From Alphaproteobacteria bacterium (GTDB taxonomy: Bacteria > Pseudomonadota > Alphaproteobacteria > CALKHQ01): a stretch of DNA of 64,000 nucleotides. Position 1 is the stretch's first letter. Each line of letters opens with the position of its first letter. The stretch is taken from NCBI GenBank assembly GCA_965227515.1, contig CBDDFZ010000001.1, positions 1,312,001 through 1,376,000 on the forward strand. The letters run 5' to 3'. Position numbers and translations under genes: made by a program. Positions 31,360 to 53,325 of this stretch are shown piece after piece. The notes under the pieces were generated by a model. That model was given only the letters and a program-made list of their open reading frames with translations, made no database searches and was not told where the DNA came from.

Positions 31360-32655
31360 TGAGCGGTCGGAGAGATAGGTGACGGATCGTACCGGAGACA
31401 TGGGTAACACTTTTGGCCTTTTGGCCGGGGGTGTTGATGCCGTGGAGACGGAGTACGGTTATGGAGGAACGCCTGCGGTTTGTGGCCCGTTTGCTGGAAG
31501 GCGAGAGCATGAGCGCGGTTTGTCGGTCTTTCGGGATATCCCGGAAGACCGGCTACAAGATTTTCAAGCGGTATCAGGCGGAGGGTGTGCATGCGCTGAG
31601 CGACCGGTCTCGCCGCCCGGTGCGCTACGCCAACCAGCTGCCGGCCGCGGTCGAGCGGCTGATCGTCGCGACGAAGAAAGAGAAGCCGCACTGGGGCGCA
31701 CGCAAGATCCGGGAGGTGTTGGTGCGCCGTCTTGCCGGCGACGTGCGCATTCCCGCCAGGAGCACGGTGCATGCGGTGCTCGACCGCCACGGCCTGGTCC
31801 AGCGCGCCCGGCGCCGGCGCCACAAGGCGGCGGGCACGCCGCTGTCGACGGCCCATGTCCCCAATGCGCTGTGGTGCACCGACTTCAAGGGCGAGTTCAA
31901 GCTCGGCACCGGCCGCTATTGTTACCCCCTGACGGTGACCGACCAGGCCTCGCGCTTCATCCTGGGCTGCGAAGCCCTTGAGACGACCAAGGAGGCGCAT
32001 GCCTTCCCGGTCTTCGAGCGCCTGTTCCAGGAGTTCGGCCTGCCCGATGCGATGCGCTCCGACAACGGCCTGCCATTCGCCAGTCCGAACGGGCTCTACA
32101 ACCTCTCCAGGCTCGCGGTCTGGTGGCTGAGGCTGGGGATCGCGATCGAGCGCATCAAACCCGGCCATCCGCAGCAGAACGGCCGCCATGAACGCATGCA
32201 CCTGACCCTGAAGAAGGAGACCACCAAGCCGGCCGGCGCCAACATCCTACAGCAGCAGGCCCGCTTCGACGCCTTCGTCGCCGAGTTCAATACCGAGCGC
32301 CCGCATGAGGCGCTCGCCATGAAGTGCCCGGCAGAGGTCTACACCCCCTCAGCCAAGCCCTATCGCGGCTTGACCGAGCTCGACTATCCGTTCCACGACC
32401 GGGATGTCGTCGTCACCTCATGCGGGCGGCTGTGCCTGCACCGAAAGAAGATCAACATCTCAACCGTCATGGCCGGACAGCGCCTGGGAATCAAAGAGGT
32501 CGACGAGGGCATATGGCTCGTCAGCTTCATGCACTACGATCTCGGATACATCGACCTGGAGCAGAAAACACTGCAGACACTCGACAGCCCGTTCGGCACG
32601 AGGTTGTCACCCATGTCTTAGGTACAAACTGTTACCTATGTCTCCGGGTCGGACA
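31360..32655 (+). mobile_element. IS481-family insertion sequence, copy 1 (1,296 bp)
   Basis: Left end TGAGCGGTCGGAGAGATAGGTGAC, right end GTTACCTATGTCTCCGGGTCGGACA; two internal GAGAC/GAT.GGT.AC repeats per end; flanked by AAA/AAA; boundaries defined by comparison with copy 2. Confidence 0.93.
31437..32621 (+). CDS. IS481-family DDE transposase
   Basis: MPW...VMEERLRFV, HTH (FGISRKTGYK), WCTDFKG, RSDNG.PF, PQQNGRHERMH, FN.ERPHEAL. Confidence 0.95.
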   Translation: MPWRRSTVMEERLRFVARLLEGESMSAVCRSFGISRKTGYKIFKRYQAEGVHALSDRSRRPVRYANQLPAAVERLIVATKKEKPHWGARKIREVLVRRLAGDVRIPARSTVHAVLDRHGLVQRARRRRHKAAGTPLSTAHVPNALWCTDFKGEFKLGTGRYCYPLTVTDQASRFILGCEALETTKEAHAFPVFERLFQEFGLPDAMRSDNGLPFASPNGLYNLSRLAVWWLRLGIAIERIKPGHPQQNGRHERMHLTLKKETTKPAGANILQQQARFDAFVAEFNTERPHEALAMKCPAEVYTPSAKPYRGLTELDYPFHDRDVVVTSCGRLCLHRKKINISTVMAGQRLGIKEVDEGIWLVSFMHYDLGYIDLEQKTLQTLDSPFGTRLSPMS

Positions 32656-32665
32656 AAAGGCGAGT

Positions 32666-32739
32666 TGGAGCGGGTGAGGGGAATCGAACCCCCGTCTTAA
32701 GCTTGGGAAGCTCCTGCTCTACCATTGAGCTACACCCGC
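32666..32739 (-). tRNA. tRNA-Gly(CCC)
   Basis: Reverse complement GCGGGTGTAGCTCAATGGTAGAGCAGGAGCTTCCCAAGCTTAAGACGGGGGTTCGATTCCCCTCACCCGCTCCA; 74 nt, CCA encoded. Confidence 0.97.
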
Positions 32740-33393
32740 GTCGCACCGGTCGGTCCGCGTCGCCCGAGGGCCGCCACCGGTCCGCCGATCGGGATTGATA
32801 CCGACGTTGGTCCGGGCGCGGCCAAAGCGCGCTTTGCGTTTGCCGCCCGTGCGATGCGATAATGAGTTATGTCGCGCCTGTATTCAATCGTCGGGTCGGC
32901 TGGCAGCGCATCCGCTTTGGGAATCGTATGCCGGTGTGGCGAACTACTTGCCACCCCTGTGAGTCGGCAGGCTGCGCAAAAGCAAAAACGGGCGCGCGAG
33001 GGCTCTGTGATCAAATTGCCGCACGGTGTTGCAAATTCATCGCAGTGGTTCGCGCAGGCCAATAACGCCATGGAAACAAAAGAGTTTTTGACAACGCACC
33101 GGCCTGTGGTGCATAGTCTGGGGGTGTTCGATTGCTTCTGGGCGGCCATTCGGCAGTCCGTCTGCTCAGGCGTTCGCTTGCAACCCGCAGCGATTTAGGT
33201 ACAAATTGCAGTCGCAAAGACCAGCGGTCGGCGTTTGAGCTGGCGTGTCGGTAACTGCCTGAATGGAGGCACGAAGTTAGTTTCGAGCGTTCGCATCATC
33301 AGGTTCGCGCCAGATGCCGGAGCTCGTGAAAATGACGAGGGTTGAAATCCTCACGATGAAGGAGGCGTTAGTTTCATGAGGAGTGTGACGGAA

Positions 33394-34215
33394 ATGACAC
33401 GAGGCGTTAAGGCTTGCGTCGCCGTTGGTGCCTTGGCGCTCGTTTCGGGTTGCGCCACGGGTTGGAACCTCGATGCATTGCAGTCGGCGGAGCGCGTTGG
33501 CGACCCGTTCACTGTGGCGCTGGCGAACGAATACCAGGCCCTGGCGGAATACGAAGCCAACACCATGCTCGACTGGACCGATGCGGATTACTTCGCAATC
33601 AAGGGTCTGGCCGCAGCGGGTGGCGAAGTGGTGCTGCCGGAAGACACGGCCAACTGGTACGTGCCGGAAGCTCACCTTGCCGAGCTGACCGATGCCCGCG
33701 CCCAGTTGCTGGCCGCGCTGGACAGTGGCGCTCGCGCCAACCAGCCGGAAGTGGCCGCGCGCTGTCAGGTTCTCTATGACTGCTGGATCGAGCAGGCTGA
33801 AGAGAACCATCAGCCGACCCACATCAGCGCTTGCCGCGACAACTTCTACGATTGCTTGGCCTCGCTTGGTCAGGTTGTCGTCGTTGCCGATAACTTCGTC
33901 ATCCTGTTCGACTTCGACAGCTCCGCGCTGACGGCAGCCGGCCAGGTGGTCGTGAACGAGGTTATCGCCGCGGCGTCCGCCGATCCGAGCCTGCCGGTGC
34001 AGTTGGTTGGTCACACCGACACCGTCGGTTCCCCGGCCTACAACCTGCGCCTGTCGCTGGCCCGTGCCGAGACCGTGCGTAATGCGCTGGTCACCGGTGG
34101 CGTGCAGCCGAACCGGATTTCCATCGAAGGTCGTGGTGAGACCGATCTCGCCGTTCCGACTGGCGATGGCGTCCGTAACCAGGCCAACCGTCGTGTGGTC
34201 GTGACCCTGTTCTAA
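33394..34215 (+). CDS. OmpA-family lipoprotein (start could be 33376)
   Basis: Lipobox VSGC, YDCWIEQ..EN.Q..HI.ACR, FDFDSS.L, GHTDTVG...YN..LS..RA, NRRV. Confidence 0.92.
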   Translation: MTRGVKACVAVGALALVSGCATGWNLDALQSAERVGDPFTVALANEYQALAEYEANTMLDWTDADYFAIKGLAAAGGEVVLPEDTANWYVPEAHLAELTDARAQLLAALDSGARANQPEVAARCQVLYDCWIEQAEENHQPTHISACRDNFYDCLASLGQVVVVADNFVILFDFDSSALTAAGQVVVNEVIAAASADPSLPVQLVGHTDTVGSPAYNLRLSLARAETVRNALVTGGVQPNRISIEGRGETDLAVPTGDGVRNQANRRVVVTLF

Positions 34216-34238
34216 TCGACCTGACGGATCGTTACAGA

Positions 34239-34272
34239 GAGCGGCGCTGCTTCGGCAGCGCCGTTTTCTTTT
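34239..34272 (+). terminator. Rho-independent terminator
   Basis: GCGGCGCTGC-TTCG-GCAGCGCCGT followed by TTTCTTTT. Confidence 0.88.
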
Positions 34273-34544
34273 GGGGCATTGGCCAGCGGGCCGACGGAGC
34301 GCGGGGCCGTGCCCGGCACCCCTGATGGCGGCTACCGGAGTCGTCGGAACATCCGCCTTGCCCAATGGGCCCGCCACCTGCCACAACCGGAAAGCCGGCA
34401 CGTCACGCGCGGCCCGGGCGGTGACCGGCCATAAGGCCCATTGGACGTGACCGCTGCCAACCTCGCTCGGCCCCAACCAGGATTGCCTGACGTGCCGCGC
34501 GCGACCGTGCCGAACCAAGAACCGCCGCCAGGAAACGCCAGCCG

Positions 34545-35558
34545 ATGAAGCGCATTATCATTCCCGATCACCAGCCCGCCGAGGAGGATGTCGAGCGCGC
34601 CGCCGCCGGCGCCGACATCGCGCTCGATATCTATCGGGTCCAGCAAGGCGAGAAGATCGATGAAGACGTCTGGCGGCGCTGCGACGGGATCGTCGCCTGG
34701 CACGAGGCGCATATCGACCGGGATCGAATCGCCACCTTGGACTCGTGCCGCATCATCGTGCGCGGCGGTGTCGGTTACGACAATATCGCGCTGGAAGAGG
34801 CGGGCGCGCGGGGCATCGCGGTCTGCAACGTCCCCGACTATGGCACCACGGAGGTTGCCGACCATGCCATCGGCCTGATGCTGGCGCTGACCCGCAACCT
34901 GATCGGCTATTGGGACGATCTGCGCGCCGAGCCGGAGGCGCATTGGGCCTGGCACCGCGGACGGACGGTGCGGCGGCTACGCGATCTGGTGTTCGGTGTG
35001 GTCGGCCTGGGCCGCATCGGCACCGCGGCCGCCCGGCGGGCTGCCGCGTTCGACATGGATGTGGTGTTCTACGACCCTTACCTGCCGGACGGGCACGAGC
35101 TCGCGGTCGGTTATCGCCGCGCGCTCAGCCTGTCGCAATTGCTGACCGAGGCCGATGTTCTCAGCGTCCACACCCCGCTGACCGAGGAGACCCACAATCT
35201 CATCGACGCCGATGCGCTGCACGCCATGAAGCCCGATGCCGTGCTGATCAACACCGCGCGCGGCGGGGTGGTTGATCCGCAGGCGGTGCTGGAGGCACTG
35301 CTGGATGGCCGCCTTGGCGGTGCCGGGCTCGATGTGTTGCCGCAAGAGCCGCTGCCGTCGGCACACCCGCTGACCAAGGCCTGGATCGAGGATCATCCCG
35401 CCCTCAAGGGGCGCCTGATCGTCACGCCGCACGCGGCGTTCTACAGCCCGCAAGGGCTGCGCTTCCTGCGCCACAAGGCAGTGGCGACGGCAGCCGAGTT
35501 CCTGCGTACCGGCGTGCTGCGCAACTGCGTCAACCGGCAGTACCTGAAGCAGACCTAG
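34545..35558 (+). CDS. D-2-hydroxyacid dehydrogenase, CtBP-like
   Basis: RGGVGYDN, NVPDYGTTEVADH, GLGRIG, INTARG, LDV..QEP, TPH.AFYS. Confidence 0.92.
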   Translation: MKRIIIPDHQPAEEDVERAAAGADIALDIYRVQQGEKIDEDVWRRCDGIVAWHEAHIDRDRIATLDSCRIIVRGGVGYDNIALEEAGARGIAVCNVPDYGTTEVADHAIGLMLALTRNLIGYWDDLRAEPEAHWAWHRGRTVRRLRDLVFGVVGLGRIGTAAARRAAAFDMDVVFYDPYLPDGHELAVGYRRALSLSQLLTEADVLSVHTPLTEETHNLIDADALHAMKPDAVLINTARGGVVDPQAVLEALLDGRLGGAGLDVLPQEPLPSAHPLTKAWIEDHPALKGRLIVTPHAAFYSPQGLRFLRHKAVATAAEFLRTGVLRNCVNRQYLKQT

Positions 35559-35575
35559 CTGGCCGGCCCGCCCAG

Positions 35576-36205
35576 ATGTACACGCCGAAGCTGTTCGCGC
35601 TGGACGACCGGGATGCCGCGCACGACATCATCCGCCGGCACGACTTCGCGCTTCTGGTCACCAGCCTGGACGGTGCCCCGGTCGCCACGCACCTGCCCTT
35701 CCTGTTGGACCCGGCGCGCGGGGAGCACGGCACGCTGATGGCCCACATGGCGCGGGCCAACCCGCAGTGGCGCGATTTCGAGGCGTTGCGCGGGCGCGGC
35801 GTCGACGTGCTGGTCGCCTTCACGGGACCGCATGCCTATGTGTCGCCGCGCTGGTACGGGCCCGGCGACGCCGTGCCGACATGGAACTACCTCGCGGTCC
35901 ATGCCTATGGACCGGCGCACGAATTGGACGATCCCGCTGCGGTTCGTGGCTACCTGGAGCGCCTGGTGGCGACTGCGGAAGCGGGCGCACCAACGCCCTG
36001 GTCCCTGGACGGCCAGTCCGAGCGATACATCGACGGGATGATGCGCGGCATCGTGGCGTTCGAGGTGCCGATCCGGCGCCTGGAAGCCAAGGCCAAGCTC
36101 AGCCAGAACAAGGATGAGGCCACCCGGGCCGCCGTTCGCGAGGAACTGGCCGCCTCTGAGGATCCGGCGGCCAGGTCCGTCGCTGAACGGATGCGCTCTA
36201 TCTGA
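35576..36205 (+). CDS. PaiB-like FMN-binding protein
   Basis: MYTP..F, ATHLP, HMARANPQW, GPHAYVSP.WY, VPTWNY.AVH, K.KLSQN. Confidence 0.92.
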   Translation: MYTPKLFALDDRDAAHDIIRRHDFALLVTSLDGAPVATHLPFLLDPARGEHGTLMAHMARANPQWRDFEALRGRGVDVLVAFTGPHAYVSPRWYGPGDAVPTWNYLAVHAYGPAHELDDPAAVRGYLERLVATAEAGAPTPWSLDGQSERYIDGMMRGIVAFEVPIRRLEAKAKLSQNKDEATRAAVREELAASEDPAARSVAERMRSI

Positions 36206-36628
36206 CTATCTGACGATTTCCATCAGCGCATCGGCGCGGTCACGCGCCAACTCGACACGACAGCCGTGACTGGCGATTCCGGTGCCGCTGCCGCCGCCAA
36301 ATGTGGTGCCGACGAACGCGCACTGCTGGTCGCGGTAGGCGATCCAGGCCGTCTGTGACGCTTCCAGGGCCGGCACCGCCATGCTGCGCCCGGTTGCGTC
36401 GTCGATCTCCGCGGCTGCATTCATCGCGAAGCCAAGCGCAAGCTCCATGGCCGCGTCCGCCGCGTCTTCGGCGGCGCCGACGCAATTGCCGATCTCGATC
36501 TGGCTGTTGAACTGGACGCTGCACTCCTCCACTGGGCCAGCTGTCGCGGGCAAGGCGGCGGCGAGGGTCGTGGCAACGGCGATGGCCGGCGCGCCGAGAG
36601 TGGCCATGAGATGGGTCATCGATATCAT
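36206..36628 (-). CDS. LprI/DUF1311-family secreted protein
   Basis: Signal peptide, L..SQ.AW.AYRD.QC.F...GGSG......C...L...R; AGGAG RBS. Confidence 0.82.
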   Translation of the reverse strand: MISMTHLMATLGAPAIAVATTLAAALPATAGPVEECSVQFNSQIEIGNCVGAAEDAADAAMELALGFAMNAAAEIDDATGRSMAVPALEASQTAWIAYRDQQCAFVGTTFGGGSGTGIASHGCRVELARDRADALMEIVR

Positions 36629-36929
36629 CGAGAGACTCCTTGTCTGCAAGATTGGATAGCTATGGATGCGTATTTGGGCAGGGACTTTGGGGGACACTGC
36701 CCATGTGTGTCGATACATCGCCGCGATGCTGCCTTGCAGCCTCAACCGCACGGATACTGCGCCTTCGCGCGACGCGTTTGCTTGCTCCGGCCCCAAGCAG
36801 TGTGTAGGCTGCCTTCACAAACCGGCCGGACAGGCCCGCGCTGCGCCACTCAGGGCGTCTGCTATGACTCAGCGGTGCGGGACTGAACCGGACGATGGAT
36901 AATCCTGGTCTGGCGACTTGGGGGAGGCG

Positions 36930-39388
<2,459 letters not shown>

Positions 39389-39508
39389 CACCAAACACGG
39401 AAGATCCTCGGCACCTCGCCCCGCTCCGGGGCTCGGGCCAAGGATGACAAAAGAGATGTGGGCGTCTGTCATCGTCGCCCCGTTATTGCAGCGAGCGCCG
39501 GCCCTAGT

Positions 39509-40963
39509 TCAGTACCGCAGCGCCCAGGCGGCGATGATGCTGCGCTCCAGCTCGCGGGCGCGGTTCAGCCAGGCCCGCGCCTCCGGCGGGATCGACGAAT
39601 CGCGCATGTTGAGCGAGGCGTCCATGGCCTGCCGCTTGGCGATGTCGGACACGAAGATCGCGAAGCCCAATGTGCGGCCGGACGCGGTGTCCAGGAAGCC
39701 CGCGAGGCCGACGGCATAGGCCATGGTGCCGGTCTTGGCCCGCACCGCGATGGTGGCCGCGCCGGGGTCCGCGTCCTGGTTCAGCCAGCTCCCCCACTGG
39801 ATCGACGGCAACAGGCCGTTCAGGTCGGGCGTATCCGGCCGGTTGGCATAGTTCAGGATTGCCGCCATCTGCGCCGGCGACACCCGTGTTTCGGAACTGA
39901 GGCCGGAGTGGTTGATCATGTCGTAGCCGGCCCAATTGACGTCCGTAATGCGGGTCTGCAGCCAGGCCGTGTTCAGCCGGGCGGCATGCTCCAGGCTGGC
40001 GACCGCGGAGCCGCTGTTGGTGCGCGCGGCGATCAGGCCGGTCAGTTCGGCGGCCAGATTGTTGCTGTGCTCGAGCACCCCGGCACAGATGGTCGCGAGC
40101 GGCTCGCCGGCATGGCTGACCAGCGTGCGCGCCGTTGCCGGGGTGATCCGCTGCACCGGGCGCGCGAGCTGGACGCCCTGGTCGGCCGCGACCGCGCGAA
40201 AGGCCATCGCGGCGTGGAAGGCGGCATTGCGCACCGGCAGCCAGACCCGGCCCTCGCCCTCCAGATTGCCGGTGTAGAGCCAGTGGTCGCCACCGTCGCC
40301 GCGCTCCTGGTAGTCCAGCACTGCGCCCAGCGCGCCGCCATTGGCGTAGCTGATCCAGTCCACCGGCACCACCGAGCGGTCGGCATAGGCCGCCAGGTCG
40401 AATTCCAGCCCGCCACCGCCCGGCTGCCAGCCCAGCGAGACCCGGTTGAAGTTGATCGACAGCGCGCTGACGCCGGGATTGTAGGACGCTACCTCCGGCT
40501 GCTGCGCGGTGATCTGGCGCACGTTCGGCAGCCAGGAAACGTCATAGTAGAAGGCGCCGGCCACCCGATCGACACCGGCCGCCTTCACCTGCTGGGCGAT
40601 GGCGATCAGCGAGTCGGTGTCCAGGAACGGGTCGCCATAACCGCGCAGGTAGAGGTCGCCCACCAGCACGCCGCCGGAGATCTCGCCATCGATCCAGACG
40701 TCGGTGCGCGGCTGGTAACCGGGCCCCAGGATGCCGAGGGCGGCAACCATGGTCGGCACCTTGGCGACCGATGCTGGGATGAAGCCCTGATCCGGGCGGC
40801 CGGCGGCCAGTCTCTCGCCGGTGGCCGGGTCGAACAGCACGTAGCCCACCTGCTCCAGCGGGAAGTTGCGGGCGCGGACCAGGCCGTCCTCGTCCACCTG
40901 CGCCCAGGCTGCCGGTGCCACAAGAACCCATGCCAGCGCGAATGCCAACAGCCGCCAATGCAT
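39509..40963 (-). CDS. dacB: D-alanyl-D-alanine carboxypeptidase/endopeptidase PBP4 (peptidase S13)
   Basis: PASVAK (SxxK), G.GDP, HSNN, SGLS, AKTGT; signal peptide. Confidence 0.93.
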   Translation of the reverse strand: MHWRLLAFALAWVLVAPAAWAQVDEDGLVRARNFPLEQVGYVLFDPATGERLAAGRPDQGFIPASVAKVPTMVAALGILGPGYQPRTDVWIDGEISGGVLVGDLYLRGYGDPFLDTDSLIAIAQQVKAAGVDRVAGAFYYDVSWLPNVRQITAQQPEVASYNPGVSALSINFNRVSLGWQPGGGGLEFDLAAYADRSVVPVDWISYANGGALGAVLDYQERGDGGDHWLYTGNLEGEGRVWLPVRNAAFHAAMAFRAVAADQGVQLARPVQRITPATARTLVSHAGEPLATICAGVLEHSNNLAAELTGLIAARTNSGSAVASLEHAARLNTAWLQTRITDVNWAGYDMINHSGLSSETRVSPAQMAAILNYANRPDTPDLNGLLPSIQWGSWLNQDADPGAATIAVRAKTGTMAYAVGLAGFLDTASGRTLGFAIFVSDIAKRQAMDASLNMRDSSIPPEARAWLNRARELERSIIAAWALRY

Positions 40964-44032: not shown

Positions 44033-44252
44033 GGCGCGGCGACGCGGTGCGGCGATCGGCGGTGCGATGAACACTCTTGCGCTCCCCAGGCAGTGGCGCG
44101 TGCGTTTGGAGCATATGATCGCACATCCGATCACACAAATGCGGCATCGCCGCGGCGCGCCTGCGGCCTGCTAGGCTCTTGCATCCTGACAGTAATGCTA
44201 TAGTTCCGGCGACGCACCAACGCGCCTGTCACCAGCTCATCGCGGAGGGGCC

Positions 44253-45632
44253 ATGGCCTCCTACGACTACGATCTCTTTGTCATTGGCGCCGGCTCCGGC
44301 GGCGTCCGCGCGGCCCGCATCTCGTCCGGCCACGGCGCGCGGGTCGCCATCGCCGAGGAATGGCGTGTCGGCGGCACCTGCGTGCTGCGCGGCTGCGTGC
44401 CGAAGAAGCTGCTGGTCTATGGCGCCCACGTTGCCGAGGAGTTGGAGACCGCCGCCGGCTATGGCTGGGACATCGAGGGCGCGCGCCACGACTGGGGACG
44501 GCTGATCGCCAACAAGGACACCGAGCTGGACCGGCTGAACACGGCCTACATCAACACGCTGGAGAACGCGGGCGTCGAGATCATCATGGGCCGGGCCACC
44601 GTCTCCGGCCCGCACGAGGTGACCATCGACGGCCGCACGATTACCGCCGGCATCATCCTGGTCGCCGTCGGCGGGGCGCCGTGGAAGCCGTCCTACGAGG
44701 GCATCGAGCACGCGATCACGTCCAACGAGGCGCTGGACCTGCCGCAACGGCCGGACTCCATCGTCATCGCCGGCGGCGGCTTCATCGCGGTCGAGTTCGC
44801 GGGCATCTTCAATGCGCTCGGCTCCGACGTCACCGTGGTCTACCGCCGCGACCAGATCCTGCGTGGCTTCGACGACGACGTGCGCGACTTCCTGGCCGAG
44901 GAACTGCGCAAGAAGGGCATCGCCATCCGCTATGGCGTGACCGGCGAGAAGATCGAGCAGGCCGGCGGACGCCTGCGCTATCACCTGAGCGACGGCACCG
45001 TGCTGGACGCCGACCGGGTGATGTACGCGACCGGGCGCCGGCCGAGCACCCAGGGGCTGGGCCTGGAATCTGCGGGCGTCACGCTGACCGAGGGCAACGG
45101 CGCGGTGGTGGTGGACGACGACAGCCGCTCGTCGGTGCCGTCGATCTTCGCCGTGGGCGACGTCACCGACCGCATCAACCTGACCCCGGTGGCGATTGCC
45201 GAGGGCCACGCCTTTGCCGACACCCAGTTCGGCAACCGGCCGCGCCAGGCCAACCACGCCAACGTGCCGTCGGCCGTGTTCAGCCAGCCGCCGGTGGGCA
45301 CGGTGGGGATGACCGAGGCCGAGGCGGGCAAGGCCGGCCACGCGGTCGATATCTATCGCTCCGAGTTCCGGCCCATGAAGCAGACGCTGGGCGGCGGTTC
45401 GGAACGCGCGATGATGAAGCTGGTGGTCGACCGCGAGACCGACCGGGTGCTGGGCGCCCACATGGTCGGCGCCGACGCGCCGGAAATCGTGCAGGGGGTG
45501 GCCATCGCCATCAAGTGCGGGGCGACCAAGGCGGACTTCGACGCCACCGTCGGCATTCACCCCACCGCGGCGGAGGAGTTCGTCACCATGCGCACCCCGG
45601 TACGTCGCGAGGACCGCAAGGCCGCCGAATAG
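44253..45632 (+). CDS. gor: Glutathione-disulfide reductase
   Basis: GAGSGG, GGTCVLRGCVPKK, GGGFIAVE, LTPVAI, IHPTAAEE. Confidence 0.96.
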   Translation: MASYDYDLFVIGAGSGGVRAARISSGHGARVAIAEEWRVGGTCVLRGCVPKKLLVYGAHVAEELETAAGYGWDIEGARHDWGRLIANKDTELDRLNTAYINTLENAGVEIIMGRATVSGPHEVTIDGRTITAGIILVAVGGAPWKPSYEGIEHAITSNEALDLPQRPDSIVIAGGGFIAVEFAGIFNALGSDVTVVYRRDQILRGFDDDVRDFLAEELRKKGIAIRYGVTGEKIEQAGGRLRYHLSDGTVLDADRVMYATGRRPSTQGLGLESAGVTLTEGNGAVVVDDDSRSSVPSIFAVGDVTDRINLTPVAIAEGHAFADTQFGNRPRQANHANVPSAVFSQPPVGTVGMTEAEAGKAGHAVDIYRSEFRPMKQTLGGGSERAMMKLVVDRETDRVLGAHMVGADAPEIVQGVAIAIKCGATKADFDATVGIHPTAAEEFVTMRTPVRREDRKAAE

Positions 45633-45919
45633 CCGCCGCTGTTACCTGCCGTTACACATCGTCACACGGCGCTGTCCGGTATCCGCCGCGCTTGGATACA
45701 ATTCGCGCGGGTTTTGACGAAAATGCCAATTACCTTTATTACAATATTAACCTTTTTCGCACCCCGCGCGTTCGCTAGCCTGTTTCCCGACGGTGATCGG
45801 TTGAGTGGCGGTTTCGGGGCGCGCTCTTATCGCAGCCCCGCTTCAGGTAGCGTCGCTCTTGCATGGTCGATCGGGGGACATGACCATGCGCCGGGGCCGT
45901 CAACCGCTGGGGGGCGGCG

Positions 45920-45959
45920 GCGGGAGGGGGCTGAATTGCCCCCTCCCGCACGTTTCTTT
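45920..45959 (+). terminator. Terminator-like hairpin in the gor-DAHP synthase intergenic region
   Basis: 12-bp perfect stem GCGGGAGGGGGC-TGAATT-GCCCCCTCCCGC followed by ACGTTTCTTT. Confidence 0.65.
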
Positions 45960-45986
45960 GACCCGATGAAAGTCTCACGACATTCG

Positions 45987-46002
45987 TTAACGAAAGATTA
46001 AC
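45987..46002. promoter_or_regulatory. CtrA-binding box
   Basis: TTAA-CGAAAGA-TTAAC, perfect consensus. Confidence 0.7.
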
Positions 46003-46170
46003 GGGCCGGCCAAGTGGCCTCGGCCCTGGATTCTTTCCGCACTTCGGCGTATATCAGCCGCCCGCACCCGCGCGGGAACGGCGGTTTTGCGCGCGGAAAC
46101 GATGAACGAACCTGATTGGGGGGAGGTGCAGCAGCACTAGGCGCTGCACCGAGTTTGAGGAGACAAGGTC

Positions 46171-47544
46171 ATGGCTGCACAATGGACGCCTCAGTCCTGG
46201 CGCGAAAAACAGGCGCTGCAGCAGCCCAACTATCCGGACGCTGCGGCCGTGGCGCGCGCGGAAGAAGAGCTGCGCAGCTTTCCGCCGCTGGTGTTCGCCG
46301 GTGAGGCACGCGCGCTGATAGGCGAGTTGGCCGAGGTGGCCGACGGCAAGGCGGTGCTGCTGCAAGGCGGCGATTGCGCCGAGAGCTTCGCCGAGTTCCG
46401 GGCCAACGACATTCGCGACACCCTGCGCGTGCTGCTGCAGATGACGGTCGCGCTGATGTGGGGCACCGGCATGCCGGTGGTGAAGGTCGGCCGGTTGGCG
46501 GGCCAGTTCGCCAAGCCGCGCTCCGCCGACACCGAGACGGTGGACGGCGCCGAGTTGCCCAGCTACCGCGGCGACATCATCAACGGCATCGAGTTCGAAG
46601 CGGCGGCGCGGGTGCCCGATCCGGAACGGATGATCCACGCCTACAACCAGTCGGCCGCCACGCTCAACCTGCTGCGCGCGTTCACACGCGGCGGCTATGC
46701 CGATCTGCATCAGGTCCACGCCTGGACCATGGACTCCCTCGACGGCTCGCCGGCGGCGGAACGCTTCGGCGAGGTCGCCGACCGCATTGCCGAGGCGCTG
46801 GACTTCATGCGCGCCTGCGGCATCGACCAGTCCGTCCCGCAGGTTTCCCAGGCCGATTTCTACACCTCGCACGAGGCGCTGCTGCTGCCGTACGAAGAGG
46901 CGCTGACCCGTCAGGACAGCCTGACCGGGCGCTGGTACTCGACCTCCGCGCACATGGTGTGGATCGGCGAGCGTACCCGCCAGTTGGACGGCGCCCACGT
47001 CGAATACGCGCGCGGCATCGGCAACCCGATCGGGCTGAAGTGCGGCCCGACCATCACGCCGGATGAGCTGCTGGCGCTGATCGACGCGCTGAACCCGGAC
47101 AACACGCCCGGCAAGCTGACGCTGATCGTGCGCATGGGCGCCGGCCGGCTGGAAGACCGGCTGCCGCAATTGCTCCGTGCCGTCGAGCGCGAGGGGCGCA
47201 AGGTGGTGTGGTCGTGCGATCCGATGCACGGCAACACGCTGAAGTCGAGCACCGGCTACAAGACCCGGCCGTTCGAGCGCATTCTGGCCGAGGTGCGCGA
47301 GTTCTTCGACGTGCACTACGCCGAGGGCACCCACCCGGGCGGCGTGCACTTCGAGATGACGGGCCGCGACGTGACCGAGTGCCTGGGCGGCGCCCAGGCG
47401 ATCACCGAGGAGCAGCTCGCCGATCGGTATCACACTCACTGCGACCCGCGGCTGAATGGCAGCCAGGCCCTGGAGCTGGCTTTCCTGATCGCCGAGCAAC
47501 GCAAGCGCGAGCGCAACGACGAGCGGCTGCGGCGCGCCTCGTAG
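46171..47544 (+). CDS. Class II DAHP synthase
   Basis: W.P.SWR...[46 protein letters not shown]. Confidence 0.96.
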
Positions 47545-47601
47545 GCACGCCGCCCGATCCGCCGCGGCCGCGCCGCGACCCCACGCACGGAGGGCCTTGC
47601 G

Positions 47602-48753
47602 ATGCCCGACGACCAAGTTGCCGGCCCGCCGGTCAGCCTGTCGGACGATGACGTCCGGCGCCGCACCGACCAGTATTTCAATCGCACCAAGGAAACGATC
47701 GCCCGCCACGGCGACACCCAGGTGACCTACGCCATCTTCATGCGGCGCCCGGTGGTCTCCGCCTTGCGGCTGGCAATTGCGTTCCTGGAGGCGACGGCGA
47801 AGTCGCGCGGCACGTCGTTCGAGATCGAGCGCTGCCAGGACGAGAGCAAGTGGGTCGGCGCCGGCGAGCCGCTGATGTACCTGACCGGCTCGTTCTATCA
47901 CCTGGTCGATTTGGAGACGATCTACCTGCAGAAGATCGGCCCGCCGTGCGTTGCCGCCTACAACGCCTATACCATGTGCTCCGAATTGCCGAACGTGGCG
48001 TTCCTGGCCATGGACGCGCGCCACTGCGCCGGCCGCGAGATGGCCGACATGATGGCCTATGCCGCGTCGGTCGGCAGCGCGCGGGCGCAGCGCAAGCACG
48101 GCGCCAAGGGGTTCGTCGCCAATGCCAACGACGAGACCGCGCACTATTTCGGCCTGGAGCGCGGGCGGGGCACCATGCCCCACGCGCTGATCGGTTATGC
48201 CGGCTCCACGGTGCGGGCGGCCGAGATGTATCGCGAGACCTATCCCGACGAGGACATGGTGGTGCTGGTCGACTATTTCGGCCGCGAGGTCTCCGACAGC
48301 ATCGAGGTGGCGAAGCGGTTTCGCGACCTGGCCGACAGCGGCCGGCTTTCGGTGCGGCTCGATACCGGCGGTGGCCGGTTCTGCGAGGGCCTGGATACCC
48401 AGGAGTCCTATGCGGTGCTGGAGCGCAACGTGCCGGAGGCGATCCGCGGCTACCGCAGCGACGACGACCTGCGGCACCTGATCGGCACCGGCGTGTCGGC
48501 GGCGGCGATCTGGCACATGCGCGAGCAGCTCGACGCGGCCGGCTTCGGCCAGGTGAAGATCGTCGCCAGCTCCGGCTTCGGCCCGGCCAAGTGCCGGGTG
48601 ATGGCGATCGCCAATGCGCCCATCGATGTGGTGGGCACCGGCTCCTACCTGCCGGAGAAGTGGTCGGAGACGTATGCGACCGCGGATATCATCGAGTATG
48701 GCGGCACGCCACGGGTCAAGGTCGGGCGCGAGTTCCTGTTCCGGCGCGCCTGA
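47602..48753 (+). CDS. Nicotinate phosphoribosyltransferase-like protein
   Basis: TDQYF, LET.YL, MDARH, GTMPHAL, LVDYF, VRLDT, SSGF. Confidence 0.8.
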   Translation: MPDDQVAGPPVSLSDDDVRRRTDQYFNRTKETIARHGDTQVTYAIFMRRPVVSALRLAIAFLEATAKSRGTSFEIERCQDESKWVGAGEPLMYLTGSFYHLVDLETIYLQKIGPPCVAAYNAYTMCSELPNVAFLAMDARHCAGREMADMMAYAASVGSARAQRKHGAKGFVANANDETAHYFGLERGRGTMPHALIGYAGSTVRAAEMYRETYPDEDMVVLVDYFGREVSDSIEVAKRFRDLADSGRLSVRLDTGGGRFCEGLDTQESYAVLERNVPEAIRGYRSDDDLRHLIGTGVSAAAIWHMREQLDAAGFGQVKIVASSGFGPAKCRVMAIANAPIDVVGTGSYLPEKWSETYATADIIEYGGTPRVKVGREFLFRRA

Positions 48754-48759
48754 GCGCAG

Positions 48760-48800
48760 GCACATGAACCCGGGCACGTGAACCCGGACACTTAACCCGG
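48760..48800 (+). repeat. Three 13-14-bp tandem repeats
   Basis: GCACATGAACCCGG, GCACGTGAACCCGG, ACACTTAACCCGG. Confidence 0.8.
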
Positions 48801-48867
48801 TCTGGGGTCGCGCCGGCCTCGAGTTGCTGGCAAGCTGTGCCGGTCACCACGAAGCGAGGGGCCGGCC

Positions 48868-49086
48868 ATGCCGCTGATCGACATCCATGTGCTTGAGGGC
48901 GTTTTCACCCCTGAAGAGAAACACCAGCTGATCACCGAGAGCGCCAAGGTATTCGGCAAGGTTGCCGGCAAGCCGATGCAGGATGCCACCTCGGTGCGCA
49001 TCCACGAGGTGCCGAGCGGGTGCTGGGGCGGCGCTGATGCGGTGTGGACAACCGAACGCGCCCTGGCGCTGAAGGCCGGCACCTAG
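48868..49086 (+). CDS. 4-oxalocrotonate tautomerase-family protein
   Basis: N-terminal Pro (MPLI.I), EK..LI, V.I.EV..G.WGG; 72 aa. Confidence 0.88.
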   Translation: MPLIDIHVLEGVFTPEEKHQLITESAKVFGKVAGKPMQDATSVRIHEVPSGCWGGADAVWTTERALALKAGT

Positions 49087-50133
49087 AGCGGGATCGTTTT
49101 ATGCGGAAGCGTATCCTGCATTGACGATGTAGTTGTTGCATTCGTGTGGCTGGAACGCGTCGAGTAGTTTTCCGATACGCCGCCATGTGTCGTCGATGGT
49201 GCGCTCTGCGGCGCGCCTGAGCAGGTGCTTGAGCTTGGCGAACACCTGCTCGATGGGATTGAGGTCGGGGCTGTAGGGCGGCAGGAAGAGCAGCCTTGCG
49301 CCGGCTTGGCGCAGGGCGGCCCGTACGGCCTTGCCCTTGTGGCTGCCCAGGTTGTCCATGATGACGATGTCGCCGGGTTTGAGCGTCGGCACCAGGATTT
49401 GCTCGACATAGGCGAGGAAGGCCTGACCGTTAATCGGGCCGTCGAAGACGCACGGTGCGGTGAGCTGGTCGCAGCGCAGAGCAGCGAGGAAGGTCAGGGT
49501 GCGCCAGCGGCCGTGCGGTGCCTTGCCGACGAGGCGCCGGCCGCGCCGGCTCCAGCCCCGCAACGGCGCCATGTTGGTCTTGGCCCAGGTCTCGTCAATG
49601 AAGACCAGGCGGGCGGGATCAAGTTTCGCCTGATGACGCTTCCAGCGCGCGCGGCGCCGCGCCACGTCGGGACGATCCTGCTCGCTGGCGAACGCGGTTT
49701 TTTTTGAAGCTCAATCCCTCGGCATGCACAAAGCGCCAGATCGCGCCGTAGCTCACCCGGATGCCGCGATCGGCCAACTCGCGCTGCAAGGAGCGCAAGG
49801 GAAGGTGCGGCTCGGCAGCCAAACGAGCCTGCACGAAGTCGCGATGCGGCGCCAATATGATCCGCTTGTGGCCACCGACCTTGCCCGGCGCAACGCTCCC
49901 GGTGCGCCGATATCGCTGCGACCACTTCACAACCGCAGACACGCTCACATCGAACGCGGATGCCACAGAGCGAACCGTCTCACCGGCCATCACCCGGGCA
50001 ACAGCACGCTCACGAAGATCATTCGAATAGGGTCGACCCATCGCGCCAGCCTCCTCTCAAGACCAACACGTTGAATCAGATTGCCACCCGAGTCGGGAAT
50101 CCCCTTTCGATTCTTCCAAAAAAGACCCCGCTC
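49086..50133 (-). mobile_element. IS630-family insertion sequence
   Basis: Imperfect IRs GAGCGGGATC / GACCCCGCTC, TA on both sides (49084-85, 50134-35). Confidence 0.9.
49099..50041 (-). CDS. IS630 transposase, two ORFs joined by a probable -1 frameshift at an A8 tract (49698-49705)
   Basis: orfA MGRPYSNDLRER HTH; orfB FIDETW, MDNL..HK, LPPYSPDLNPIE. Confidence 0.9.
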
Positions 50134-50135
50134 TA

Positions 50136-50956
50136 AGGCCTGTTGAGATTCAGGATTCCTCTCCGTGCTTGGTTGTGATTCAAGCTTCGGATGGAACGAT
50201 TCGTACTGAGTGACGCCCAATGGGCGAAGATGGAACCCCATTGCTTGGGCAAGCCGAGCGATCCGGGCCGCAGTGGCGCTGACAACCGGCGCTTTGTCGA
50301 AGCCGTGCTGTGGGTGGTGCGTACGGGCAGCCCGTGGCGTGATCTCCCGACATCTTTTGGCCCTTGGAACACGGTCTTTAAGCGATACCGCGACTGGGTC
50401 AAAGCAGACGTCTTCGTGCGGCTGTTCGAGGCCTGCTTGGACGAGCCGGACATGGAATACGCCATGGTTGATGCCACCATTGTCAAGGTGCACCGCCACG
50501 GCCAGGGCGCAAAAGGGGGACTCAAAGCCAGGCCATCGGCCGCTCCAAGGGCGGGATGACGACGAAGATCCTCGCGCTGTGTGATGCGCTTGGCAATCTG
50601 GTGCGTTTCGTGCTCCTGCCCGGCCATCGCTACGATACGGTTGGCGTGCCGCCGCTCATCGACGGACTCTCCTTCAAGGCGATGATCGCGGACAAAGCGT
50701 TCGACACCAGCGCCATCGTTGCTGACCTCAACGAGCGCGGTGCCAAGATCGTCATATCCCAGCATCCGCGCCGCGCCAGCCCGCTGCAAATCGACGCCGA
50801 GATGTACAAATGGCGTCATCTGATCGAAAACTTCTTCTGCAAACTCAAAGAGTTCAAGCGAATCGCCATGCGTGCAGACAAAACCGACACAAGCTTCAAC
50901 GCCATCATCCATCTCGCAGCAGCTGTCATAAACTCGCGATGAATCTCAACAGGCCC
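50136..50956 (+). mobile_element. IS5-family (IS427-like) insertion sequence
   Basis: IRs AGGCCTGTTGAGATTCA / TGAATCTCAACAGGCCC, TA on both sides (50134-35, 50957-58). Confidence 0.92.
50191..50942 (+). CDS. IS5-family transposase, two ORFs with a probable -1 frameshift at AAAAGGGGG (50511-50519)
   Basis: LSDAQW, RTGSPWRDLP..FG.W.TV, VDAT; orfB TTKI, ADKAFD, YKWR.LIENFF.KLK.F.R.A.R. Confidence 0.9.
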
Positions 50957-50993
50957 TAGTCGGGCGGATGGCGCCGGAGACCGTCGAGCGCGC

Positions 50994-51701
50994 CTATGCC
51001 TGCTTCGTCAGAAAGACACTGATCTCGTCGCACAACAGCGTCGGGAACCGCTTCTTGAGCCCAAGCCTGCCGCCCACCGGGACAACCCTGTCGACGCGCA
51101 GCGCGTTCAGGCCGGCAATGCGCTCGATCGACTCCAAGGTGAAGTAGTGCAGGTGGTTGCCATCCCATTCGCGCTTGTCCCACCAGTCCAGCGACGAGGT
51201 GACCGGCAGCCTGCCGCGCAGGACGCGCATCCGGTTCTTGATGCCGGTGATCAATGGCAGGTTCACGATGGCAACCGACCTGTCGTGCATGACTTTGTGG
51301 AGTTGTTCGAACGAATGAAAGGGATCGAACAGGTGCTCGAAAATCATGAGCGCCACGATCAGATCGAATTTTTGATCGATGTCCCAATCATGATCTAGGT
51401 CGCGGTGCACCAATTCAACGTTATCAAATCTATTCATGCCGAGCGATCTATCGACAATATCGATGCCGAGATACGTTTTGGCATATTTTGAGTAGATCTT
51501 GAAATATTGTGGACCGCCATAGCCGACTTCAAAAACAGAAAATTCTCCCTGGTGTGATCGAAGAAAGTCATAGACGGGATAGTAACGGTCTCCCGGGGAG
51601 ATTTCGGCCTCCTCGACAAATGTTACAGCCGAATCCTCGGCCTGCAGCCAGTTTTCATGAGACCGGGCGTAAAATTTCTCTGACGGTCCGGTTGTCTGCA
51701 T
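50994..51701 (-). CDS. Class I SAM-dependent methyltransferase (lower GC)
   Basis: VFEVGYG, GIDI, FDLIVA..IFEHL.DP, HLHYFT. Confidence 0.85.
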   Translation of the reverse strand: MQTTGPSEKFYARSHENWLQAEDSAVTFVEEAEISPGDRYYPVYDFLRSHQGEFSVFEVGYGGPQYFKIYSKYAKTYLGIDIVDRSLGMNRFDNVELVHRDLDHDWDIDQKFDLIVALMIFEHLFDPFHSFEQLHKVMHDRSVAIVNLPLITGIKNRMRVLRGRLPVTSSLDWWDKREWDGNHLHYFTLESIERIAGLNALRVDRVVPVGGRLGLKKRFPTLLCDEISVFLTKQA

Positions 51702-51944
51702 AAGACCGGCATCCCCAGTTGCCACAAATTTGAAACTTGAAGACGGACATAAATTGGCAGTTAACGCGCTCGACTATTCTGAATCCCCGTCGTGAGTTAT
51801 GCAACCAATAATAGATATGGTCTCCGCGCATCGGTGACGGCAGGCCGGTTTGCATCCGGGGTTTGCATCGGGGCGGCATTCGCGGTCCCGGTGCGCATGT
51901 CACCGGGGTCGACGGACCGAGATCGGATCGGAAATTTTTTTTTT

Positions 51945-53240
51945 TGAGCGGTCGGAGAGATAGGTGACGGATCGTACCGGAGACATGGGTAACACTTTTG
52001 GCCTTTTGGCCGGGGGTGTTGATGCCGTGGAGACGGAGTACGGTTATGGAGGAACGCCTGCGGTTTGTGGCCCGTTTGCTGGAAGGCGAGAGCATGAGCG
52101 CGGTTTGTCGGTCTTTCGGGATATCCCGGAAGACCGGCTACAAGATTTTCAAGCGGTATCAGGCGGAGGGTGTGCATGCGCTGAGCGACCGGTCTCGCCG
52201 CCCGGTGCGCTACGCCAACCAGCTGCCGGCCGCGGTCGAGCGGCTGATCGTCGCGACGAAGAAAGAGAAGCCGCACTGGGGCGCACGCAAGATCCGGGAG
52301 GTGTTGGTGCGCCGTCTTGCCGGCGACGTGCGCATTCCCGCCAGGAGCACGGTGCATGCGGTGCTCGACCGCCACGGCCTGGTCCAGCGCGCCCGGCGCC
52401 GGCGCCACAAGGCGGCGGGCACGCCGCTGTCGACGGCCCATGTCCCCAATGCGCTGTGGTGCACCGACTTCAAGGGCGAGTTCAAGCTCGGCACCGGCCG
52501 CTATTGTTACCCCCTGACGGTGACCGACCAGGCCTCGCGCTTCATCCTGGGCTGCGAAGCCCTTGAGACGACCAAGGAGGCGCATGCCTTCCCGGTCTTC
52601 GAGCGCCTGTTCCAGGAGTTCGGCCTGCCCGATGCGATGCGCTCCGACAACGGCCTGCCATTCGCCAGTCCGAACGGGCTCTACAACCTCTCCAGGCTCG
52701 CGGTCTGGTGGCTGAGGCTGGGGATCGCGATCGAGCGCATCAAACCCGGCCATCCGCAGCAGAACGGCCGCCATGAACGCATGCACCTGACCCTGAAGAA
52801 GGAGACCACCAAGCCGGCCGGCGCCAACATCCTACAGCAGCAGGCCCGCTTCGACGCCTTCGTCGCCGAGTTCAATACCGAGCGCCCGCATGAGGCGCTC
52901 GCCATGAAGTGCCCGGCAGAGGTCTACACCCCCTCAGCCAAGCCCTATCGCGGCTTGACCGAGCTCGACTATCCGTTCCACGACCGGGATGTCGTCGTCA
53001 CCTCATGCGGGCGGCTGTGCCTGCACCGAAAGAAGATCAACATCTCAACCGTCATGGCCGGACAGCGCCTGGGAATCAAAGAGGTCGACGAGGGCATATG
53101 GCTCGTCAGCTTCATGCACTACGATCTCGGATACATCGACCTGGAGCAGAAAACACTGCAGACACTCGACAGCCCGTTCGGCACGAGGTTGTCACCCATG
53201 TCTTAGGTACAAACTGTTACCTATGTCTCCGGGTCGGACA
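51945..53240 (+). mobile_element. IS481-family insertion sequence, copy 2 (1,296 bp)
   Basis: Same ends, length and translated ORF as copy 1; flanked by TTT/TTT. Confidence 0.93.
52022..53206 (+). CDS. IS481-family DDE transposase
   Basis: Translation identical to 31437-32621. Confidence 0.95.
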   Translation: MPWRRSTVMEERLRFVARLLEGESMSAVCRSFGISRKTGYKIFKRYQAEGVHALSDRSRRPVRYANQLPAAVERLIVATKKEKPHWGARKIREVLVRRLAGDVRIPARSTVHAVLDRHGLVQRARRRRHKAAGTPLSTAHVPNALWCTDFKGEFKLGTGRYCYPLTVTDQASRFILGCEALETTKEAHAFPVFERLFQEFGLPDAMRSDNGLPFASPNGLYNLSRLAVWWLRLGIAIERIKPGHPQQNGRHERMHLTLKKETTKPAGANILQQQARFDAFVAEFNTERPHEALAMKCPAEVYTPSAKPYRGLTELDYPFHDRDVVVTSCGRLCLHRKKINISTVMAGQRLGIKEVDEGIWLVSFMHYDLGYIDLEQKTLQTLDSPFGTRLSPMS

Positions 53241-53249
53241 TTTGGAGGG

Positions 53250-53325
53250 TGGTGCCGATGGAGGGACTCGAACCCCCGACCCACGCATTACGAATGCGTT
53301 GCTCTACCGGCTGAGCTACATCGGC
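53250..53325 (-). tRNA. tRNA-Thr(CGT)
   Basis: Reverse complement GCCGATGTAGCTCAGCCGGTAGAGCAACGCATTCGTAATGCGTGGGTCGGGGGTTCGAGTCCCTCCATCGGCACCA; 76 nt. Confidence 0.97.

Follow-up and report, generated by a model that had tools for sequence, protein, structure and literature searches.

How does a small insertion sequence (IS) come to lie at nearly the same distance behind two different tRNA genes? The question is raised by a window of 64,000 nucleotides, the whole stretch of alphaproteobacterial DNA analysed here, which holds two copies of an IS481-family element, each beside a tRNA gene. A sequence-only reading of the window had proposed that this element, which has a single open reading frame, picks tRNA genes by position and leaves the tRNA intact, and our analysis of the source genome, its relatives and metagenomes bears this out. 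The element is probably an active member of a distinct IS481-family clade whose transposase picks its target by position relative to the tRNA gene. Insertion is 9–11 bp beyond the encoded CCA and 25–27 bp from the T-loop, at genes of at least 26 anticodon types; the right end is always tRNA-proximal, the transposase gene is convergent on the tRNA and the local sequence is immaterial.

The two loci in the window proved to be accurately described by that reading, which had reported identical transposase translations for the two copies, had placed their right ends towards the 3′ ends of the only two tRNA genes present, and had given the spacers, the duplications, a shared T-arm motif and the intactness of both tRNAs. 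Copy 1 (31360..32655, forward strand) and copy 2 (51945..53240, forward strand) agree at 1,296 of 1,296 bases. ARAGORN, run on the whole window, called tRNA-Gly(CCC) (32666..32739, reverse strand) beside copy 1, tRNA-Thr(CGT) (53250..53325, reverse strand) beside copy 2 and nothing further. In both copies the right end (...GGACA) is turned towards the tRNA 3′ end. The spacer to the CCA end, read directly in the sequence, is 10 bp for tRNA-Gly (32656..32665) and 9 bp for tRNA-Thr (53241..53249), and the T-arm motif is shared, with 27–28 bp from the end of its GTTCGA to the IS end. Measured from the edge of the T-loop, the IS end is 26 bp away at tRNA-Gly (T-loop 32682–32688) and 25 bp away at tRNA-Thr (T-loop 53266–53272). 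The flanks show a duplication of AAA for copy 1 (31357..31359 and 32656..32658) and of TTT for copy 2 (51942..51944 and 53241..53243). Both tRNA genes are complete and no tRNA segment is duplicated.

Position of the element in the source genome and its relatives

The source genome (G000) consists of two contigs, 5.52 Mb (5,518,080 bp) in all, with 49 tRNA genes according to ARAGORN. The whole-genome BLAST check of the proposal found four full copies, 100% identical to one another; on the second contig it also found a remnant, 193 bp of right end at 82% identity. All five lie 9–10 bp from five different tRNAs and face the tRNA 3′ end, with gaps of 10 bp at Gly-ccc, 9 bp at Thr-cgt and 10 bp at each of Pro-ggg, Ser-gct and Thr-tgt. 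Run over this genome, a profile built from the element's last 60 nt found no further right ends away from tRNAs. A random insertion would fall in the one orientation, 9–11 bp past a tRNA 3′ end, with a probability of 49 × 3/(2 × 5.52 Mb), or about 1.3e-5, so five placements out of five did not arise by chance. The four full copies carry four different exact 3-bp duplications (AAA, TTT, GAT and AAT). Being identical, and each with its own duplication, they are recent and independent insertions; independence had already been suggested for the two copies in the window.

The same geometry holds in related genomes and metagenomes. One genome per species was scanned and the best 80 of 564 genome relatives were kept (74–81% protein identity); their hosts are Alphaproteobacteria of many families and Betaproteobacteria. 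From metagenomes the best 80 of 581 were kept, and the element is known from many soil and water bacteria. Eight of the 80 genome loci carry a Bradyrhizobium variant described below, and 65 of the other 72 have at least 100 nt downstream. A complete tRNA on the opposite strand stands at 52 of these 65 standard loci, with gaps of 9 (18 loci), 10 (32) and 11 bp (2). The 3-bp duplication is exact at 31 of 60 loci with both flanks and agrees in two of three bases at 12 more, where about one exact match is expected by chance. Among the metagenome loci with enough flank, 32 of 57 have a complete tRNA, again at 9 (12), 10 (16) or 11 bp (4).

For a pooled tally, right ends were located with the profile of the last 60 nt, a flank of at least 75 nt was required and identical flanks were removed, leaving 150 distinct sites. 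A complete tRNA was found at 103 of them, always convergent and in 102 cases at 9–11 bp (gap 9 at 40 sites, 10 at 56, 11 at 6 and 18 at one). These 103 sites cover 26 anticodon types and 14 amino-acid families, and one tRNA-Gln site was seen apart from the tally. Counting pieces of tRNA genes as well, a tRNA gene or part of one adjoins about 95% of the 150 sites. The complete genome G024 gives a similar picture on its own: six of its seven copies lie 9–10 bp from complete tRNAs (Asn, Gly, His, Met, Arg-tct and Arg-cct), and the seventh adjoins a 17-bp tRNA-Ser 3′ fragment followed by a mobilisation-type gene. An Rfam search of 20 and then 19 loci without a tRNA call found no other RNA gene beside the IS, only tRNAs elsewhere and one intron, and no transfer-messenger RNA gene adjoins any copy in 205 records. 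The intron is a group II intron domain at L148 (1755–1911; RF02005, 69.6 bits), beside a tRNA 3′ fragment with the IS at a gap of 12.

The element is also found in 120 plasmid or chromid records. On pSymB of Sinorhizobium meliloti 1021 a copy adjoins the essential single-copy tRNA-Arg(CCG). The strip behind this gene varies among strains (L081, L202, L203): 1021 and others carry the IS with differing far flanks, and SM11 is without it there but has another IS-like end about 50 nt away. The strip is a hot spot. The Bradyrhizobium variant (L065–L068, L070, L072, L073, L075) has, close to the 3′ end of its transposase gene, an insert of about 240 bp that contains palindromes; the final ~50 nt of the gene are repeated past the insert and the frame closes early, and the right end and the spacing are intact. 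In L072 the true right end lies 10 bp from tRNA-Thr.

The sequence-only reading had asked whether the trait defines a clade. We took two samples of 400 genomes each, one at the level of the phylum and one of the class, and found that the identities of the relatives were bimodal. At the 18 loci of at least 58% identity (full copies 60–81%, degraded or partial ones at least 58%), we found the same geometry or a tRNA fragment with two exceptions, a remnant 128 nt from a tRNA (L097) and a gap of 18 (L115). L083, at 60% identity, is a tRNA-targeting copy in a genome of another class, and L098 is the C-terminal part of a copy, with no tRNA call. At 17 loci of no more than 47% identity there was no tRNA in the fetched stretch, which at several of them ends with the contig. 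The geometry is thus kept at 58–81% identity and tRNAs are absent at the 17 loci at or below 47%, which fits with a clade defined by the trait. In a maximum-likelihood tree of 40 sequences the group at or above 58% forms one split on a long stem (Shimodaira–Hasegawa-like approximate likelihood ratio test, SH-aLRT, 99); its label, 'tRNA_adjacent', was set by identity of at least 58% and not by the trait, so the tree shows the split of a high-identity group, which includes L041 and L064, without flanks, and L018, L021, L058, L063 and L076, with a fragment or nothing beside them.

Outside this group, related elements have quite different habits. G000 itself holds five copies of an IS481-family relative of 35% identity (386 residues aligned), 97.9–99.1% alike, on contig C1 at 877741–878895, 385029–386183, 409873–411027, 2802571–2803725 and 1657181–1658335. 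None of the five has a tRNA 3′ end facing it within 21 kb. All five lie instead in the 5-nt loop of a palindrome like the repetitive extragenic palindromes (REP), with a 5-bp duplication. A pattern search found at least 51 intact copies of this palindrome in G000, one of them in the window at 63129–63151. A 36% relative in genome G116, with TGT...ACA tips, is present in four copies (L088–L091) and is bordered, on one side or on both, by different GC-rich palindromes, of the type CCCTCCCC...GGGGAGGG; it is another palindrome-associated sister lineage.

Could the association have come about with no targeting at all, by random insertion and survival behind tRNA genes or by carriage on integrase-borne islands? 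The flanks behind tRNA 3′ ends are neutral ground and hot spots for islands, and about one occupied site in five is a tRNA fragment such as islands leave behind. Selection, however, cannot yield one orientation and a position only 3 bp wide (102 of 103 sites; 5 of 5 in G000), and identical copies with different 3-bp duplications indicate recent transposition. An integrase is missing from the element, and its insertion duplicates no part of the tRNA. The genes to the left of the copies in the window are ordinary ones and not island genes (a GGDEF response regulator, a sigma-54 activator, a methyltransferase and an IS630-like transposase), and a screen of the window flanks found no integrase to the left of either copy. 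That a related IS in the same genome goes to REP loops also speaks against survival or carriage as the cause. The orientation and the precision of the spacing exclude random insertion and passive carriage for practical purposes, and we regard an origin of this kind as extremely improbable.

The element and its transposase

The element is 1.3 kb long, with one coherent gene, a 3-bp duplication and a right tip ending ...ACA. The transposase gene of copy 1 (31461..32621, forward strand) encodes 386 amino acids from the ATG at 31461, with a possible in-frame ATG at 31437. The frame is uninterrupted here and in 70 further distinct full-length translations (368–399 amino acids, mostly 386–388). The protein matches the NCBIfam model of the IS481 family, NF033577, at 232.6 bits against a cut-off of 224 (residues 4–294), while the models for IS3, IS630, ISNCY and IS21 all score under their cut-offs (IS21 at 28.9 bits against 160). 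Its Pfam matches are rve, rve_3, HTH_32, HTH_28 and LZ_Tnp_IS481.

In these respects the element is a member of the IS481 family, with which it shares a single DDE transposase without a frameshift, unlike the frameshifting IS3, an rve core, an N-terminal helix-turn-helix (HTH), an IS481-type zipper, the ...ACA terminus and a short duplication. IS481 of Bordetella, a canonical member, is said to prefer a short palindromic hexamer; the clade ignores local sequence and measures from the tRNA gene. Family duplications range from 2 to 15 bp in ISfinder and are mostly 6 bp, according to passages of PMC10045372, so that the 3 bp of the clade fall inside the range and differ from most members. TGT/ACA ends are noted for the family in a passage of PMC11406308, and a caveat is that the left tip in G000 is TGA rather than TGT.

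Structure prediction places the transposase among integrase-fold enzymes. An AlphaFold2 model built on an alignment of 53 sequences (mean predicted local distance difference test score, pLDDT, 84) has two N-terminal helical DNA-binding units resembling a paired-like double HTH, an RNase H-like core and a C-terminal beta barrel. D141, D201 and E244 are invariant across the 53 sequences and, by their position in the predicted fold, should form the DDE triad. The best Foldseek matches are IstA, TnsB (of type V-K CRISPR-associated transposons, CAST, and of Tn7), MuA and retroviral integrases. Sequence profiles match retroviral integrase cores, IstA of IS21 (residues 125–379) and paired-box domains (residues 3–109). 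The clade has its architecture in common with the sisters, and the C-terminal barrel is also present in the REP-targeting relatives at 33–46% identity. Of the residues fixed in the clade, those replaced in all six sisters cluster most densely in the barrel (residues 313–375; 14 of 63) and, close behind, in the second HTH (residues 57–112; 12 of 56); their density is low in the first HTH (2 of 56) and in the catalytic core (13 of 165).

Each end of the element is built from a tip repeat and two subterminal copies of one motif. The left end of copy 1 (31360..31411, forward strand) holds the terminal inverted repeat and two subterminal repeats of the ...GAGA(C/G)AT(A/G)GGT(A/G)AC type, an arrangement kept in more than 60 relatives, and the right end (32622..32655, forward strand) is the 34 nt past the stop codon. 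Both window copies begin TGAGCGG and close ...GGGTCGGACA. The inverted repeat is clear, and the right-end profile also matches the left end on the opposite strand. Most copies have ...ACA as their right tip; the left tip, TGA here, is TGA, TGC or TGT in relatives, and collapsed-repeat contigs of relatives stop at the same right-end length.

Ahead of the gene lies a conserved leader stem-loop (31408..31433, forward strand, in copy 1; the same structure at 51993–52018 in copy 2). RNAalifold on 16 relatives gives an 11-pair stem in which four pairs show compensatory changes. Its 3′ arm contains GGAGG just ahead of the in-frame ATG at 31437, which suggests that the true start of the transposase is eight codons upstream of the ATG at 31461. 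To judge from its sequence, the hairpin looks like a shield against translation from read-through or outside transcripts, a usual form of IS control.

Within its 1,296 bp the element has no second gene of the kinds that might select a target, neither an AAA+ regulator such as TnsC, nor a TniQ/TnsD or CRISPR selector, nor istB. The domain matches of its protein include no tyrosine or serine recombinase domain and no reverse transcriptase domain. We considered whether the IS supplies the tRNA with a terminator and rejected the idea: the weak matches found were at chance level (3 found against 0.9 ± 1.0 expected).

The window has further features apart from the element. A protein with a Tle1-like phospholipase domain of the type VI secretion system is encoded at 26706–28409 (reverse strand), a truncated IS630-like DDE_3 frame lies at 49099–49665 (reverse strand), and a 47-nt imperfect inverted repeat pair lies at 53458–53638, just upstream of tRNA-Thr.

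How the target may be recognised

The sequence-only reading held that the insertion point is not defined by its own sequence. When the flanks are aligned on the IS end this is what is seen: each of the first 10 positions after the IS carries no more than 0.2 bit, and information is found only at the TGG that encodes CCA and at the T-arm. The sites without a complete tRNA help to separate the two. We built a weight matrix on the 102 regular sites, took 200,000 random positions of the genome as background and scored these 47 sites. In 27 of them a T-arm was matched at the expected offset (p<1e-3), within longer 3′ fragments of tRNAs, tRNAs truncated where a contig stops or pieces that resemble tRNA. 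Six of the T-arm sites have no CCA (L131, L132, L133, L150, L163, L190), and the distance from T-loop to IS is still 25–27 bp. The ruler is therefore anchored in the tRNA body and the CCA is dispensable.

Remnants of the element at occupied sites fit with such a ruler. A 10-nt relic identical to the IS right tip (31348..31357, forward strand), recognised by flank comparison, lies to the left of copy 1 and is what remains of an earlier insertion at the tRNA-Gly site. An older right-end relic stands immediately to the left of the Ser copy in G000 (C1:3891115–3891172), and others lie directly to the left of resident copies in L003 (~2850–2900), L105 (323–380) and L007 (2844–2896), with three short right-end relics in tandem at L003. 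These relic sequences point to repeated cycles of insertion and deletion at one tRNA. New copies come to lie between the tRNA and the old right-end relics, as would be expected of a ruler that starts at the tRNA.

We propose that the transposase itself most probably binds the conserved T-arm/3′ part of the tRNA gene as double-stranded DNA. Binding may involve transpososome subunits or domains that are free of the IS ends, for which the second HTH and the C-terminal barrel are candidates; the sequence-only reading had already suggested the C-terminal domain as a possible reader of the T-arm. The active sites would then come to lie some two and a half turns of the helix further downstream, and the orientation would follow from the difference between the left and right ends of the IS. 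The positioning would be much like that of Tn7 behind glmS by TnsD, minus the helper proteins.

Several observations weigh against this reading. About 12 of the 150 sites (including L021, L063, L075, L106, L117, L123, L128, L142 and L166) have only an acceptor strand and CCA, 12–20 nt at a gap of 9–11, with no T-loop. We take such fragments to be the 3′ piece displaced when an integrase-borne island entered a tRNA gene already occupied by the IS, and at L106 a mobilisation-type gene follows the fragment; if the IS came second at these sites, the T-arm would not be required. Five sites are off register, with gaps of 18 (L115), 19 (L067), 20 (L156), about 22 (L195) and 4 (L134); L115 is a complete tRNA and the other four are displaced tRNA 3′ ends. 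A further five or so of the 150 have no convincing tRNA-like sequence (L155, L068, L076, L077 and the degenerate L042). The use of targets is also uneven, with Ser at 25 sites, Arg 15, Thr 13 and Met 12, Leu and Ala at one each, and no Val, Ile, Phe, Tyr or Cys tRNA among the 103 complete-tRNA sites. A plain reader of the T-arm does not account for this, and selection against insertions within tRNA and rRNA operons may explain it. The loci are the best-ranked relatives and so a non-random sample, and related genomes may share inherited insertions. No filled and empty pair of sites was found: the 700-bp left flank of copy 2 was unmatched in 20 related genomes, and the S. meliloti strains with and without the IS at tRNA-Arg also differ on its far side, giving no clean pair. 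The 3-bp duplications serve as evidence of insertion in place of that comparison. Direct binding to DNA is, finally, read only from the ±1 bp precision and from the comparison of sites.

Two side observations concern these irregular sites. In L115, L067, L156 and L195 the IS lies 18–22 bp from the CCA, about one helical turn (8–12 bp) beyond the usual position. Duplication-length classes about 10 bp apart are described for IS481 relatives in a passage of PMC10045372, and a link between the two is speculation. In L021, L063 and L075, from a Mesorhizobium and two Bradyrhizobium, the same 12–14-nt tRNA-Met 3′ end stands beside the IS and is followed by a short hairpin-forming sequence; going by this recurrence, the sequence probably marks where integrative elements of one common family end.

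The transposase might instead be brought to tRNA genes by an RNA or a host factor without reading DNA. Candidates for such a tether are a tRNA paired with its own gene (as an R-loop), RNA polymerase at the end of the transcript, or a processing or modification enzyme that binds the T-arm. The enzymes whose folds are nearest in the Foldseek search, IstA, TnsB, MuA and retroviral integrases, all choose their targets via partner proteins or host factors, which counts in favour of a tether. Pairing of the tRNA 3′ end would cover both the fragments with only CCA and acceptor strand and the T-arm fragments that lack CCA without calling for a second event, and 26 anticodon types fit with each tRNA guiding the element to its own gene. 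A flexible tether would, however, hardly give a precision of ±1 bp at 102 of the 103 complete-tRNA sites. The element also occupies degenerate sites that resemble a T-arm but correspond to no real tRNA elsewhere (L163, L190, L150), and 3′ fragments without a promoter carry it today. We know of no bacterial protein that marks tRNA genes on DNA, and the element has no second protein and no conserved RNA besides the leader hairpin. We consider recruitment by a tether unlikely.

A related and very unlikely possibility is that the cell's own tRNAs act as guides. A tRNA or nascent transcript held by the transposase would pair with its own gene through its 3′ half, and integration would follow at a fixed distance past the hybrid of tRNA and gene, with no need for a guide gene. 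If true, this would explain the targeting of any tRNA together with the occupied CCA/acceptor fragments and T-arm fragments without CCA, and the element would be a natural RNA-guided DDE transposase. A guide encoded by the element itself was rejected: the IS has no match of 7 nt or more to four variants of the T-arm consensus on either strand, and its sole conserved leader hairpin looks translational. Similarity between IS tips and the T-arm was likewise rejected as the basis of targeting, as the tips vary (GGGTCGGACA, GGGCTGGACA, GGTCCGTACA and others) while the target is constant.

The sister lineages suggest a further alternative, in which structure and not duplex sequence is read, namely a hairpin or cruciform that is extruded by the palindromic T-arm, or one that the tRNA gene forms while it is single-stranded in replication, the ancestral habit being the targeting of REP hairpins seen in sister elements. 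Two sister lineages do insert at GC-rich palindromes, the 35% relative of G000 at five of five sites and that of G116, and the T-arm is a GC-rich 5-bp stem with a 7-nt loop. The tRNA clade, however, inserts 25–27 bp off the hairpin rather than within the loop, and a 5-bp stem makes a poor cruciform. The T-loop bases are conserved at occupied sites that are not tRNAs, which argues against structure alone and would also be expected if these sites were derived from tRNAs. The 3-bp duplication indicates integration into duplex DNA. Reading of structure thus seems quite unlikely.

Relation to known systems and meaning of the finding

In the full-text literature that we searched we found no report of tRNA targeting for the IS481 family or for any single-gene bacterial IS; ISfinder, TnPedia, subscription reviews and supplements lay outside the search. 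The word tRNA does not occur in a broad survey of IS neighbours (PMC9208149) or in an IS481 phylogeny (PMC10045372).

A parallel in geometry is offered by Tn7 and its CAST relatives, which share with the element a fixed distance and orientation downstream of an essential conserved gene, with the right end at the recognised site, and a related transposase fold, TnsB chains being among the top Foldseek matches. Some use tRNA genes as attachment sites, as passages of PMC11406308 report, and type I-B2 CAST has a tRNA-targeting TnsD. These elements differ in needing a separate selector (TnsD/TniQ or a guide RNA complex) and the AAA+ adaptor TnsC, and they mostly home to one gene, where a 1.3-kb element with one protein uses many tRNA genes. 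IS21 is alike in that IstA is the best structural match, and differs in that our element has no istB.

Among simple insertion sequences, those that target REP or dif sites likewise have one transposase, and their copies recur with the same orientation within a few bp of a motif conserved in chromosomes: PMC1525189 describes REP sequences as IS targets, and PMC10132070 places the IS1202 group 5 bp from the XerC site of dif/pdif. The address of the tRNA clade is different in being a class of genes, recognised by a common feature and used 25–27 bp off, outside the gene. Copies of the clade do not lie in repetitive extragenic palindromes, whereas those of the 35% relative do.

Islands and prophages with tyrosine integrases also use the 3′ end of tRNA genes, and often the same site, as the tRNA 3′ fragments beside the IS indicate. 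Their recombination takes place within the gene, at a stretch that has the same sequence as attP, and leaves the 3′ part of the tRNA in two copies. The IS, by contrast, lacks an integrase; it lands outside the gene, and what it duplicates is 3 bp of the spacer.

In its strategy the element resembles retrotransposons. For Ty1, Ty3 and the Dictyostelium elements TRE and DGLT-A, tRNA genes are multi-copy safe harbours in compact genomes (passages of PMC5911963 and PMC5006619), and integration by an integrase-fold enzyme is position-specific near any tRNA gene. The retrotransposons differ in being copied through RNA and tethered to RNA polymerase III factors, a machinery without a bacterial counterpart. 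The IS is a DNA transposon with terminal inverted repeats and lands at about +10 downstream, not upstream of the start. The trait in the IS481 clade is unrelated by descent to that of the retrotransposons. By analogy, the element looks like what bacteria have in place of the retrotransposons that seek out tRNA genes in yeast and amoebae.

There are practical consequences. Annotators should expect such elements and stacks of their relics directly behind tRNA genes, and island-finding tools that rely on tRNA flanks will meet them. If the T-arm is indeed read as DNA by a 386-amino-acid protein, the transposase would be a safe-harbour integrase that consists of one protein, needs no guide and has about 50 natural sites in a bacterial genome. 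Being compact, and with an address that is universal, harmless and present in many copies, such a transposase would make a useful chassis for inserting DNA at defined sites in bacteria.

For the family, the finding sets a structural puzzle, a lone DDE transposase that measures about 26 bp from a 17-bp motif, and a natural contrast is at hand within a single genome, where the 35% relative goes to REP hairpins. Homing to tRNA genes, known elsewhere from retrotransposons, from multi-protein Tn7-like and CAST elements and from integrases, is here found in the simplest kind of mobile element. The habit would offer the element about 50 harmless and universally conserved landing sites per genome, and the convergent orientation would mean that the strong tRNA promoter gives antisense and not sense read-through into the transposase gene. 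In this clade the use of tRNA genes as a safe harbour has evolved by clear convergence, and in bacteria that are tractable for study.

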